Part shown: positions 11,607 to 14,739 of the stretch, piece after piece
Position numbering within the stretch: the first letter of the stretch is position 1
Layout of the letters: each line of letters opens with the position of its first letter
IMG/VR virus record: IMGVR_UViG_3300045988_124250
Source: a virus
DNA length: 64,000 nucleotides
Reading direction: 5' to 3' (one strand)
Made by a program: the position numbers and the translations under genes
Notes under the pieces: model-generated
Database searches by the model: none
The model's input: the letters and a program-made list of their open reading frames with translations, nothing else
What the model was told of the DNA's origin: nothing

Positions 11607-11833
11607 AGAACACCTCTTAAAAATGGATTTTGGTCGTGCTCAGAGAATATTGTGAACTCTTTAACAAAATAATTATTAATTACATTTACTGTATTATTTG
11701 GAAATAGTTTATTTAATGCCTAATGAATTTCACGGGCTTCATCTACATTAACATCTTCACCTAAATGAGCAACAATAATATCACCAGGGTATAAATTAAC
11801 TACATTAACTTTAATATTCTCACACATCGACAT
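11605..11833 (-). CDS. small hypothetical protein (one in-frame TAG)
   Basis: MSMCENIKVNV...; overlaps gyrB exon 2 stop and RNase H start. Confidence 0.3.
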
Positions 11834-12017
11834 TAGCCCTTTCTGCATATTTCTCAATAAATGCCTTACGAGGACCGACTGCTTCACCCATTAAACTAAT
11901 AAATGTGGTTGCTACTTGTTCCGCATCTTCCATAGTAATTTGCTTTAAAGTACGAGTTTCTGGATTCATAACAGTTTCTTCCATTTCATGAACATCCATT
12001 TCACCTACGTGTTATTC
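11820..12017 (-). CDS. gyrB: type II topoisomerase subunit B, exon 2 (C-terminal tail LGEMDVHEMEETVMNPETRTL...AFIEKYAERANVDV)
   Basis: matches conserved GyrB C-terminus ([17 protein letters not shown]...EPRRAFIEENA); joined to exon 1 it restores ...FELGRMKG-LGEM... Confidence 0.6.
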
Positions 12018-13031
12018 CAATATCACTATTGGCACTGACTATTTCTTCACTCAGGCTTACGTATTAACTGCCTTCATCGTGCTCACCTTTTTGAAATGCG
12101 TATCAATAGCATTTCTACTCCCCAACAACGGGGATAGTCGATACAGGTTTAAACTATGATATTTTTCCAATTCTAATAAGTCCATACATTTGTAAATGAG
12201 CCGTATGTTATTTTATTAGAATAATCTTTATAAACTTCTCTTATATTTTCACCATTTTTACGACGTAATCTAATTTGATATACATCATTTTCATCTAAAC
12301 GAGAACGTCCATTTTTACTTCCAATATTCGACGTATTATGTTTATGAAAATTCTTATTTTCTTCGGTAAATACTTCTGGCATAACATTTTTCCATGTTTC
12401 TCCATTCCATATTTTATGAAAACCTGATTCTCCAATTAAATTTTTATAATTTTCATAAACTTCATTTTTTCGCTCATGATTATTATATCGAGAACGAATA
12501 TCAATAACATCTTGTTTAGTTAATTTATGACTAGGATGACATTCTTCAGCATTAAATTGTCCTCCAGAAGTCATATTATATTGATTTGGATAAGTATTAT
12601 AATATTTAATATAATACTATTCTCGTTCATTTAATTCATTTATTTTACATTCTTCTAATATTTCAAATGTAAAATTTTCTATACCAAATTCTTGAATGGC
12701 TTGATATAATCGTTTATTAGTTTCTCGCATCCAATTGTATTTAGTTTTATGTTCTTTAAAACGTTCTTCAATTTGGACACTCTATCCAATATAAGAAAAA
12801 TTATTTATTTTATTCGTAATTTTATATATACCTATCATTATAATTACCTCACTTTATTAGTAAGATAATATCATAGTTTCTTCCCACGAGATTATCTTCA
12901 TTTATATTTTAAATTTATTCATTTCAGGATTTCCTGAAATGTCCAAATTTTGAAGACTACCTCGTTAGCCTATTATAATTAATAGACCCCACTGATAAGT
13001 GGAAAAGTGAGTAAGGGCCAGACTATCTCTT
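12018..13031 (-). mobile_element. ~1014-nt intervening sequence splitting gyrB, group I-like intron with GIY-YIG homing endonuclease ORF
   Basis: exon 1 ends ...AAA GGG T, insert begins AAGAG..., ends ...AACACG (terminal G), exon 2 resumes TA GGT GAA ATG; splicing restores codons K-G-L-G-E-M of GyrB. Confidence 0.55.
12173..12836 (-). CDS. GIY-YIG homing endonuclease (intron-encoded, 2 in-frame TAG)
   Basis: MIGIYKITNKINNFSYIG-TAG-SVQIEERFKEHK...EREQYYIKYYNTYPNQYN resembles I-TevI-type GIY-YIG module; GTGAGGT RBS. Confidence 0.6.
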
Positions 13032-14739
13032 ACCCTTTCATACGTCCTAGTTCAAATTGGCGATTCATTGATTTACGAAATTCTGTTAACGCTCGTTCAT
13101 CTTTTAAATACTTAATATTAGTGCCCCAAGTAGCCTTAAACAATGGAGGCACGGCAGTATAAATATAACCTTTTTCCAGAAGCTCAGGCGCAAATTTCCA
13201 AATAAATGTTAAAAATAGGACACGAATATGACTACCATCAACATCAGCATCTGCGGTAATAATAATTTTACCATAGCGCAATTTAGATTCATCGACAATA
13301 ACTTTGCCATTTTGAACTTCCAATCCAAATGCATCAATCATAGCACTAATTTCATTATTACTTAATGCTTTATGTAAATCTGCTTTTAAGGTGTTAATAA
13401 TTTTACCTTTTAAGGGTAAAACCGCCTGTGTATTACGATTTCGAGCATTTTTTGCTGGTCCTTCAGCAGATTTACCCTCAACGATAAATACTTCACAATT
13501 CTTTCTATCTTTACTATTGGCATCACTTAGAATACCAGGAAGCATAGCACGTTTTTTTGTATCAGCTTTACGGACTGTTTCTTTAGCTTTCTTTGCTTTT
13601 TCTCTTGCGGCACGAGCCAATAGAGCTTTATCAACAATAGCTTTAGCATCTTTTTCATTTGATATTAGCCAGACTTTTAAATCTTTGGAAACAAGTCGCT
13701 GAACCATTGTACGCGCTTCACTGCTTGACAGAACATCTTTAGTCTGGCCTGAAAATACTGGGTCTGGCATAATAAATGAGAGAACTAGAGTTAATCCTTC
13801 TTTTAATTCTTCACCAGTAATATTAGCATCTTTATCTTTCAAGAGCCCTTTTTCACGAGCATAATCATTGATTGATGTTGTTAATGCTGTTCTAAACCCA
13901 GTCAAATGAGTTCCACCACTATTAGGGATAGAATTGGTATAGAGTTTATAAGTATCGCTATAAGTATCATTATATTGAAGCGCGATTTTTACACCAATTC
14001 TATCTTCTGTATTTTCGGTATAAAATACAGAAGTGAGAGTAGTTTTTTTATTATTTAAATCTTTAATATAGTCTAAAATACCATTTTTAGAACTAATTGT
14101 TTCTTCTGGTTTATCTTCAAATTTTAATGTGAAGAGCATTCCAGGAGACAAATAAGCTAATTCTTGAATTTGCTTTTTCAGAGCGTCATAATCAAGTTTA
14201 ATACCTTCCTTGAAAATGGTGGCATCTGGACGGAATTTTACCCAAGTTCCTGTATTTTTATCGCTATATTTTTCTTCTTTATAATTAATTAATTTACCAC
14301 ATTTAAATGAAGCACTTGCGCGCTTTCCATCTCTAAATGAGATAACTTGAAATTGTTCAGATAATGCGTTAGTTGCTTTTGCACCGACGCCATTCATACC
14401 ACCAGATGTATTATATCCAGTTTTTCCATTACTATCGAATTTAGCACCGGTGTGTAGTTTTGTATAAACATTTACTAATGTTTCACTACCATCTTTTGCT
14501 TTACCGAATGGAACACCACGACCATTATCTTTAACTTCAATATCACCATCTTTATTGACAGCAATATTACATTCAGTACAATGGCCATTTAAATATTCAT
14601 CGACAGCATTGGAAATAATTTCAAGGGTAATATGTCTTACGCCATCAGGTCCGACTGAACCAATATACATACCTGGTCTAAGTCGAATAGCTTCGATGCC
14701 TTCAAGCGTTTTTATGTCTTTTACGCCATAATCAGACAT
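13030..14739 (-). CDS. gyrB: type II topoisomerase subunit B, exon 1 (ATPase + TOPRIM)
   Basis: 569-aa ORF with GyrB ATPase (Bergerat) and TOPRIM regions; ends ...NRQFELGRMKG then stop, i.e. exactly where GyrB is interrupted. Confidence 0.8.
   Translation of the reverse strand: MSDYGVKDIKTLEGIEAIRLRPGMYIGSVGPDGVRHITLEIISNAVDEYLNGHCTECNIAVNKDGDIEVKDNGRGVPFGKAKDGSETLVNVYTKLHTGAKFDSNGKTGYNTSGGMNGVGAKATNALSEQFQVISFRDGKRASASFKCGKLINYKEEKYSDKNTGTWVKFRPDATIFKEGIKLDYDALKKQIQELAYLSPGMLFTLKFEDKPEETISSKNGILDYIKDLNNKKTTLTSVFYTENTEDRIGVKIALQYNDTYSDTYKLYTNSIPNSGGTHLTGFRTALTTSINDYAREKGLLKDKDANITGEELKEGLTLVLSFIMPDPVFSGQTKDVLSSSEARTMVQRLVSKDLKVWLISNEKDAKAIVDKALLARAAREKAKKAKETVRKADTKKRAMLPGILSDANSKDRKNCEVFIVEGKSAEGPAKNARNRNTQAVLPLKGKIINTLKADLHKALSNNEISAMIDAFGLEVQNGKVIVDESKLRYGKIIITADADVDGSHIRVLFLTFIWKFAPELLEKGYIYTAVPPLFKATWGTNIKYLKDERALTEFRKSMNRQFELGRMKG

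Follow-up and report, generated by a model that had tools for sequence, protein, structure and literature searches.

A probable mobile group I intron with a TAG-recoded GIY-YIG homing endonuclease in the gyrB gene of an apparently alternatively coded phage

The gyrB gene on the minus strand of a viral DNA of 64,000 nucleotides (nt), IMG/VR record IMGVR_UViG_3300045988_124250, is interrupted by an insert of 1,024 nt (13031..12008) that begins AAGAG and finishes AACACG. We refer to the whole stretch, at its full length, as the window. Our results favour, with a probability of roughly 90%, an interpretation of the insert as a mobile group I intron of the IA type, with helices P7.1 and P7.2 in its core and the open reading frame (ORF) of a GIY-YIG homing endonuclease in the loop of P6. 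We infer splicing, homing, nuclease activity and any effect of in-frame TAG codons on timing from the comparative data presented below.

The insertion in gyrB and its exact junction

The split gene consists of three parts.

13032..14739, minus strand: gyrB exon 1, codons 1-569 plus U, the first base of Leu570; ends ...FELGRMKG
12008..13031, minus strand: probable group I (IA-type) intron, 1,024 nt; first base A13031, omega G at 12008
11820..12007, minus strand: gyrB exon 2, UA of Leu570, then GEMDVHEME...ANVDV; TGA stop at 11822..11820

Read without splicing, the gene provides a 569-codon ORF (14739..13030) that runs to ...NRQFELGRMKG and halts immediately at U|AA with a TAA codon, and a second short ORF (11999..11820) that reads MDVHEMEETVMNPETR...; the product of the unspliced RNA would lose the C-terminal 62 residues of GyrB. 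Cuts after U13032 and G12008 join GGG-U to UA-GGU, restore Leu570 and give a product of 631 amino acids (aa), exon 2 starting in the RNA as UA-GGU-GAA-AUG, that is, (L)GEMDVHEMEETVMNPETR in the protein. The predicted ligated-exon junction is AAAGGGU^UAGGUGAA, or in a longer form ...AUGAAAGGGU^UAGGUGAAAUGG, and the spliced-exon sequence of the window around it reads ...AAAGGGTTAGGTGAA...

Viral contigs were scanned with the joined GyrB protein, which yielded 80 related gyrB loci. Three uninterrupted gyrB alleles (L123, L124 and L183), with 98-99% aa identity and about 94-95% DNA identity to the window, encode NRQFELGRMKGLGEMDVHEMEE contiguously, which is exactly the joined window peptide; the intron-less site in L123 reads ...GGACGAATGAAAGGTCTTGGTGAAATGGAC... 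The junction is fixed to the base by these alleles, because a cut shifted by one base produces a Val or a stop codon and Gly-Leu-Gly is obtained only with the cut given above. No gap appears in the joined product at RMKG|LGEM, and alignment with solved GyrB/ParE structures from the PDB, including S. aureus and E. coli GyrB, likewise passes without gaps through ...RYKGLGEM.... In Pfam the joined product matches HATPase_c, DNA_gyraseB, Toprim and DNA_gyraseB_C, the last of these (PF00986) covering residues 560-621 at profile positions 2-63 of 63 and spanning junction residue 570. The protein is of the bacterial GyrB/ParE type. Neither exon contains a stop or a frameshift, and the phage itself is not T4-like. 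An initial annotation, made from the letters of the window and its ORFs, had already proposed an intron of about 1 kb that splits gyrB at a conserved GyrB peptide, with U at the 5' splice site, G at the intron end and a Leu codon restored across the junction, and the uninterrupted, near-identical alleles bear out the split and its junction; the alignment of the joined product to GyrB is gapless as it expected, although the length is 631 aa instead of 630.

Some bacterial and archaeal GyrB proteins carry inteins, as is generally known, and an intein or a group II intron may be considered for this position. The insert holds stops in all frames: UAA is its first codon, stops occur throughout the gyrB frame and no continuous ORF crosses it, so that an intein, which the initial annotation had named as an alternative, is excluded. 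A group II intron is contradicted by the lack of a reverse-transcriptase ORF, by an RNA core that is that of a group I intron, and by Rfam, in which no group II match was found in the window at the gathering threshold. We give neither possibility any weight.

Predicted structure of the intron RNA

The helices (P), joining segments (J) and ORF assigned to the insert are listed in RNA order.

13013..13037, minus strand: P1, exon AAGGGU (13037..13032) pairing with guide GCCCUU (13018..13013)
13007..13011, minus strand: 5' strand of P3, CUCAC; partner GUGAG at 12086..12082; pseudoknot with P7
12968..13002, minus strand: hairpins P3.1 (13002..12989, loop UAUC) and P3.2 (12987..12968)
12886..12967, minus strand: J3/4 (UAA), P4 (ACGAG/CUCGU), P5 (UCUUC/GAAGA) and P5a hairpin (12941..12920)
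12867..12885, minus strand: P6 (GGG) and 5' strand of P6a (AAACUAUGAUAUU); partners 12147..12145 (P6) and 12163..12151 (P6a)
12149..12838, minus strand: ORF of the GIY-YIG homing endonuclease, 229 codons; TAA stop at 12151..12149
12037..12139, minus strand: catalytic 3' core; P7 formed by GACUAU (12139..12134) with AUAGUC (12042..12037)
12133..12120, minus strand: P7.1, followed by P7.2 (12114..12094, loop UAUUGAUAC) and the 3' strand of P3 (12086..12082)
12081..12048, minus strand: P8, followed by J8/7 (12047..12043)
12008..12032, minus strand: P9 hairpin (12032..12017, GUGA tetraloop) and 3' tail AAUAACACG ending in omega G

Every helix is intact in the window intron itself. The guide starts 13 nt into the intron and forms the splice-site wobble U13032·G13018 within P1, while GUCUG, just 5' of the guide, could tentatively pair with UAGGU of exon 2 as P10. 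The intron has no P2: a single base separates the guide from the 5' strand of P3, and P3.1 and P3.2 precede the UAA of J3/4. The names P3.1 and P3.2 are our own assignments for these two hairpins and are not established ones. P3.1 is among the optional helices of group I introns (PMC3873408). Further downstream, the P6a stem, of 13 base pairs (bp) in the window, closes the loop that contains the nuclease ORF, whose final codons overlap the 3' strand of P6a. The intron ends ...AACACG|UAGGUG, every member at the same site ends ...YG|UAGG, and the terminal G falls exactly where the intron-less alleles need the junction. By the presence of P7.1 and P7.2 between P7 and the 3' strand of P3 (P3') the intron belongs to subgroup IA and is IA2-like, its exact subgroup being left unassigned.

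Covariation of helices and of guide and exon

Relatives had to be found by pattern scans, because a blastn search of the phage collection gave no match when the query was the non-coding 5' part of the intron, and five records only when it was the 3' part. A pattern made from two conserved stretches (GTATCGACTAT...TATTGATAC) was present in at least 119 viral contigs; 97 instances were left after removal of redundancy, and 14 of these have no ORF. To evaluate covariation, 80 relatives with the ORF deleted were aligned by sequence only in MAFFT, and slid strands served as the control. Standard pairs amounted to 94% in P3 (with four to five pair types per position, and 32-47% in the slid control), 91% in P3.1, 100% in P4, P6 and P7.1, 99% in P7.2 and 92% in P9; several pair types were found at most helix positions, the slid controls reaching 17-67%. 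In this plain alignment P3.2 (47% paired) and P1 (70%) scored poorly because the lengths of these helices vary, and both were consequently retested sequence by sequence. P3.2 was recovered as a hairpin closed by G-C in 68 of 75 relatives and with at least 4 bp in all 75, at a median z of -3.5. Stems equivalent to P6a in the listed ORF-bearing relatives measure 6-21 bp, mostly 8-14, and are unrelated in sequence. An extension of P3 formed by a U-run and an A-run ('P3b') was 72% paired against 72-87% in slid strands and is not claimed.

The 3' half of the intron was also folded with RNAalifold, which recovered P7, P7.1, P7.2, P8 and P9 from 36 3' halves. Compensatory changes were present in 22 of the 28 pairs, 96.3% of cells were paired (32-43% when slid) and the covariation score was 0.73 (0.11-0.14 when slid), a value that none of 500 shuffles reached.

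The guide covaries with the exon at one and the same gyrB site, as AAGGGU/GCCCUU in the window, AGGGGU/GCCCCU in L103 and AAGGAU/GUCCUU in L042, and family introns at other sites present the exon/guide pairs GAGGU/GCCUC, UAUUGGU/GCCAAUG, AGCGUU/GGCGCU and UGGGUUU/GGACCCA. Some P1 predictions of 4 bp may be due to chance, and the argument is made from the compensatory changes at the same site and from the cases of 5-7 bp. Finally, the window has complementary loops in P3.1 (UAUC) and P7.2 (GAUA). A second family scan, which left the P7.2 loop unfixed for a test of this loop-loop pairing, revealed that the two loops (L3.1 and L7.2) vary together, as GAU:AUC, GGU:ACC (10 of 12 cases), AGC:GCU, GGC:GCC, AGU:ACU and AACC:GGUU, a pattern that supports a putative kissing interaction between them.

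Homology to introns known to self-splice

A covariance model (R1) was constructed from 36 intron 3' halves, the window being excluded from the seed. R1 matches the window at 12150..12007 from end to end with 107.6 bits (E=1.4e-24), as well as it matches any member of the family, and Lactococcus phage AM1 with 104.5 bits (E=8.3e-24). The T4 td intron (46.5 bits, E=1.8e-9) and the T4 nrdB intron (30.5 bits, E=1.6e-5) are also detected, and the R1 alignment places P7.1, P7.2, P3', P8 and P9 of td onto the corresponding helices of the window. Self-splicing of both T4 introns is textbook knowledge, and the element is therefore tied, through the td alignment, to introns known to self-splice. A weak R1 match at 18901..19065 on the minus strand (16 bits, E=0.06) was considered as a second intron; it lies inside a continuous PIN-PhoH gene, between the two Pfam domains, and was judged a chance match.

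Distribution and mobility of the intron family

With R1, 22 family introns were detected in 21 of the 80 related gyrB loci, at least 15 of them at the KG|LGE site, as judged by the break in the protein match. Alleles with 98-99% protein identity differ in the presence of the intron, and introns without an ORF occupy the same gyrB site in L056 and L039. Further members of the family interrupt topoisomerase genes at the motifs EG|DSA and DxDxDG|, and some are inserted in unrelated genes. At the junction, GGG-T|TA of the intron-bearing allele corresponds to GGT-CTT in the intron-less alleles; the splice-site U is therefore lost in them and the probable nuclease site is changed.

Family introns were further observed in topoisomerase B-subunit genes of L032, L040, L077, L108 and L116, after the EG of EGDSA and the DG of DxDxDG, and some topoisomerase genes hold two or more of them. 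L016 has three further group I introns, and these are detected by Rfam. Bacterial genome bins with the family pattern are mostly from gut or rumen Lachnospiraceae, Ruminococcus, Bacilli and Clostridia; many of the pattern-bearing bin sequences lie on contigs of 110-170 kb, which may be phages.

Objections to the intron and alternative explanations

Several observations weigh against the interpretation of the insert as a group I intron. P7 (GACUAU/AUAGUC) is invariant throughout the family and hence uninformative by covariation, and the search pattern included its 5' strand. The 5' domain of the window intron is unlike that of td, in which P2 lies between P1 and P3. No clear co-conversion tract was seen around the junction (7-8 differences per 60 nt there, at most 8 elsewhere), and none is claimed, as there is no clear local excess of differences. 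At the start of exon 2, AGGUGA followed by AUG is a possible start of a separate C-terminal peptide. Lastly, the Rfam model Intron_gpI (RF00028) gave no match on positions 11500-13500 at E<=1, none on the whole window at the gathering threshold and none on ORF-less family members.

The Infernal search for a group I intron had been proposed by the initial annotation as a check, and taken as the sole test it would have led to a wrong dismissal of the intron. In a control with the same model, T4 td scored 40.3 bits and nrdB 35.7 bits, both under the gathering score of 50, and because these proven introns also fall below that score, the miss is not taken against the intron. It clearly reflects the reach of the model, which is weak for ORF-bearing phage IA introns, and the case for the intron was therefore built from comparative data. 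That RF00028 misses even the ORF-less members is probably due to a fold that departs from the usual P3-J3/4-P4 order.

Failure of Rfam to recognise the element would also be expected of a decayed ribozyme that no longer splices, in which case gyrB would be a pseudogene or encode a truncated protein. We consider such decay highly improbable, given a family match that extends from end to end at 107.6 bits, window helices that are all intact, exons that lack stops and frameshifts while keeping 98-99% protein identity to uninterrupted alleles, and an intact partner gene, gyrA.

A different explanation dispenses with splicing, a free-standing nuclease gene having cut gyrB into pieces that are translated separately and assemble, in the style of T4 gp39/gp60 or Aeh1 nrdA. 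Exon 1 does end in a stop, U|AA; the AGGUGA-A-AUG of exon 2 could serve as a ribosome-binding site and start; and GenBank lists the locus of Lactococcus phage AM1 as three separate coding sequences (CDSs). However, the ORF is surrounded by a complete covarying ribozyme core, and the sequence of the guide follows that of the exon. ORF-less copies occur at the same site, and for these splicing is the only explanation. Moreover, the spacing from AGGUG to AUG is only 2 nt and the exon-2 Met varies among relatives at the same site (LGALE, LGELD, LGQMN and LGEQD). Separately translated pieces are thus extremely improbable. The initial annotation had favoured a self-splicing intron and would have yielded to the lack of an intron fold together with separate translation of the two pieces; the fold is present, and the variable residue at the exon-2 Met speaks against the latter.

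The nuclease and the reading of TAG

The group I intron favoured here carries a nuclease ORF that begins with ATG at 12838, downstream of a GAGG Shine-Dalgarno-like motif. An I-TevI-like GIY-YIG enzyme had been annotated at 12173-12836; its catalytic domain is confirmed, whereas the ORF extends over 12838..12149 and has three in-frame TAG codons that had been overlooked, at codons 19, 74 and 222 (12784-12782, 12619-12617 and 12175-12173). The Pfam family GIY-YIG (PF01541) matches residues 2-88 (E=3e-8), the catalytic domain of I-TevI (PDB 1MK0/1LN0) aligns with E=2e-5, including GIY, YIG, Arg26 and Glu73, and the whole nuclease falls in phrog_7168 'homing endonuclease' (E=1e-37). The match to I-TevI is limited to residues 3-90, with no C-terminal DNA-binding domain of the I-TevI type found; residues 90-229 match no Pfam family and contain, by eye, two repeats of an L-T-x-x-D-V-x-x-I-R ... 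W-K-N motif.

In the standard code the ORF is broken into pieces of 18, 54 and 147 codons, which might mean that the intron splices while the nuclease is a pseudogene, its three TAGs being genuine stops and the element no longer mobile. The sequences of the nuclease and its orthologues make this very unlikely. Every stop within the nuclease frame is TAG. Close orthologues at the same gyrB site have in most cases exactly 229 codons, and more distant ones 232-290; they contain 0-12 TAGs at varying positions, usually opposite CAA/CAG Gln codons in relatives, as illustrated by the exchanges (q denoting TAG) YIGqS/YIGQS, EREqYY/DKEQYW, WTYqNWK/WSYQNWK and RLYqAI/RLYQAI. The heptapeptide that follows the third TAG, NWKNIIV, is conserved in the standard-code enzyme of AM1 (NWKSIIV). 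The ratio of nonsynonymous to synonymous substitution rates (dN/dS) among the orthologues, with TAG counted as Gln, is 0.09-0.35, so that the ORF appears to be under purifying selection. Two features elsewhere in the window bear on the same question.

49016..49089, minus strand: tRNA with anticodon CUA (amber suppressor)
8782..11161, minus strand: gyrA, with TAG at codon 572 (9448..9446)

The TAG of gyrA splits the gene into ORFs of 571 and 215 aa, and the position is Gln in the closest relatives and Lys in more distant ones. When TAG is read as sense, fragments merge into full-length gyrA, endolysin, PIN-PhoH and radical SAM proteins, and full-length domain matches of gyrA, endolysin, PhoH-like and radical SAM proteins are obtained only with TAG readthrough. 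Among Gln codons, gyrB has no TAG and the nuclease has three, against seven CAA/CAG; over long minus-strand ORFs TAG occupies about 13% of Gln positions, an upper estimate, as some may lie in N-terminal extensions. On the basis of the suppressor tRNA, the TAG/Gln exchanges, the dN/dS values, gyrA codon 572 and the merged full-length genes, the phage very probably decodes TAG as Gln, in a code-15-like manner. The nuclease would then be intact, and we infer that Gln is inserted at its TAG codons. Translation of the nuclease and of gyrA would require the tRNA-CUA, because both carry in-frame TAG.

The suppressor belongs to an array of 26 tRNA genes (43964..61820), all on the minus strand among small ORFs, which also includes tRNA-Ile(UAU) and an odd tRNA-Phe(AAA); neither tRNA-Gln nor tRNA-Trp was found within the window. 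The endolysin (16353..18191, minus strand; 612 aa; CHAP, PG_binding_1 and Amidase_2) is complete only if three TAGs are read through. Recoded lysis genes are reported in such phages, and this endolysin fits. Another GIY-YIG protein (5951..6919, minus strand), with its domain at residues 234-314 and seven in-frame TAGs, has a long N-terminal coiled-coil-like region and is free-standing, no surrounding intron being seen.

Proposed splicing and homing pathway

In the pathway that we propose, the gyrB pre-mRNA would fold and the last six exon bases, AAGGGU, would pair with the guide GCCCUU. P7 would bind a free guanosine, which would attack after U13032; the terminal G12008 would next take the same site, and the freed exon would attack after G12008. 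The joining of GGG-U to UA-GGU would bring back Leu570 and with it the full 631-aa GyrB. As to homing, the nuclease would presumably cut intron-less gyrB of co-infecting phages, repair then copying the intron in. Since its gene has three TAG codons, production of the nuclease would depend on the decoding of TAG as Gln.

Taken jointly, these observations allow a broader and more tentative proposal. The family may constitute an undescribed IA subclass (without P2, with P3.1 and P3.2, and with a covarying L3.1-L7.2 kiss) that is unseen by Rfam, is widespread in phages of gut Firmicutes and has repeatedly targeted the three most conserved motifs of the type IIA topoisomerase B subunit (EG|DSA, DxDxDG| and KG|LGE), with a nuclease adapted to the alternative code so that homing is gated by the amber-suppressor tRNA of the phage. 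As a whole this scenario is possible but rather doubtful. If it were true, the nuclease would be delayed until suppression is established, and active copies would be confined to recoded phages.

Other features of the window

Three further regions of the window deserve mention. A radical SAM/4Fe-4S protein (38024..39337, minus strand) is directly followed by a 233-aa ORF (37315..38016), the C-terminal half of which holds Cys-, Gly- and Ser-rich repeats of the CxxxC type; the two could be an enzyme and its modified-peptide substrate, which in a phage would be unusual. Another radical SAM gene (52386..53666), with nine TAGs, adjoins a papain-like protease (53668..54471). Among the tRNA genes, a small ORF (45442..45888, minus strand) with a helix-turn-helix-like N-terminus and three in-frame TAGs displays by eye an HNH-type motif (HHKDGNRNNN...CPNCH), and is probably another free-standing homing nuclease. 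Directly upstream of gyrB, the ORF at 14820..15878 (minus strand) resembles by eye a class I/II aminotransferase, uncommon in phages.

Comparison with known systems

Group I introns with a GIY-YIG nuclease in a phage gene of DNA metabolism are a class of element already well known, and the present case does not change what is known of how such elements work. It is new in detail, in the gyrB host gene, in the 5' domain with P3.1/P3.2 and a kissing loop, and in the TAG-recoded nuclease. The literature searched holds no description of a group I intron in a phage gyrB or topoisomerase gene, though the wider literature may hold one, and in a 2014 review of bacterial group I introns neither 'gyrase' nor 'topoisomerase' is present. 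Type II topoisomerase genes thus join the phage genes colonised by group I introns, and a single intron family is seen to adapt its guide sequence to many target sites. There are also consequences for annotation: for such a locus gene callers will list a truncated GyrB together with a stray peptide of 59 aa and pieces of a nuclease, pipelines based on Rfam will miss the intron, and the same error is already found in GenBank records of cultured Lactococcus phages.

The T4 td intron with I-TevI, of group IA2, is the closest textbook parallel at the level of the RNA core. P7, P7.1, P7.2, P3', P8, J8/7 and P9 follow the same arrangement and are detectably homologous, and the two introns have in common the exact P7 strands GACUA/UAGUC and the AAUCYCGUG motif of the 3' strand of P4 (P4'). 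In each case the ORF lies in the P6 loop and encodes a nuclease with a homologous catalytic domain, and the host is an essential, conserved gene of DNA metabolism that is entered within a highly conserved motif. In contrast, the host gene is gyrB in the window and thymidylate synthase in td, and the window intron is without P2, has P3.1/P3.2 after the 5' strand of P3 and has the L3.1-L7.2 kissing pair. Unlike I-TevI, the nuclease has TAG-recoded codons and a C-terminal DNA-binding part that finds no match.

Nearer relatives are found in phages with the standard code; part of the insert resembles, by blastn, DNA of Lactococcus phage AM1 and of Enterococcus phages. AM1 and its relatives (Audreyjarvisvirus, NC_049854) share the KG|LGE site, the RNA architecture and a homologous GIY-YIG nuclease, and the AM1 insert aligns with that of the window helix by helix; the difference is that they use the standard code and that the AM1 nuclease has no TAG. 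In the AM1 record (L001) the region 1299..4235 is listed as the CDSs 'DNA topoisomerase II', 'homing endonuclease' and 'DNA topoisomerase', the third of which starts inside the P9 region of the intron. The split gyrB of AM1 is the same as that of the window, its group I intron being unannotated, and the word 'intron' is absent from the paper describing AM1 through LW81. Enterococcus phages VRE9_3/EF1, also of standard code, carry a homologous intron; in VRE9_3 the same family is inserted in a different gene, with a guide adapted to that exon.

T4 genes 39/60, to which the initial annotation had likened the present locus, are a loose parallel only. There too, the gene for the ATPase subunit of a phage type II topoisomerase is disrupted alongside a mobile nuclease gene. 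The T4 solution consists of two polypeptides and a translational bypass, not of RNA splicing, and the window differs in encoding a GyrB/ParE protein of bacterial type in a phage that is not T4-like.

With respect to recoding, the nearest precedent is that of the Agate phages, in which an early gene holds a group I intron endonuclease with recoded stops, which its authors propose to delay the nuclease (Borges et al., bioRxiv 10.1101/2021.08.26.457843). On our reading of the window, both systems have a self-splicing intron placed in an early gene, a gut phage with an alternative code and a recoded homing endonuclease; they differ in that TGA is read as Trp in the Agate phages, whereas in the window TAG would be read as Gln with a phage-encoded tRNA-CUA. 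The idea of a recoded nuclease is therefore not new, and it is seen here with the other codon, in a TAG-to-Gln code.

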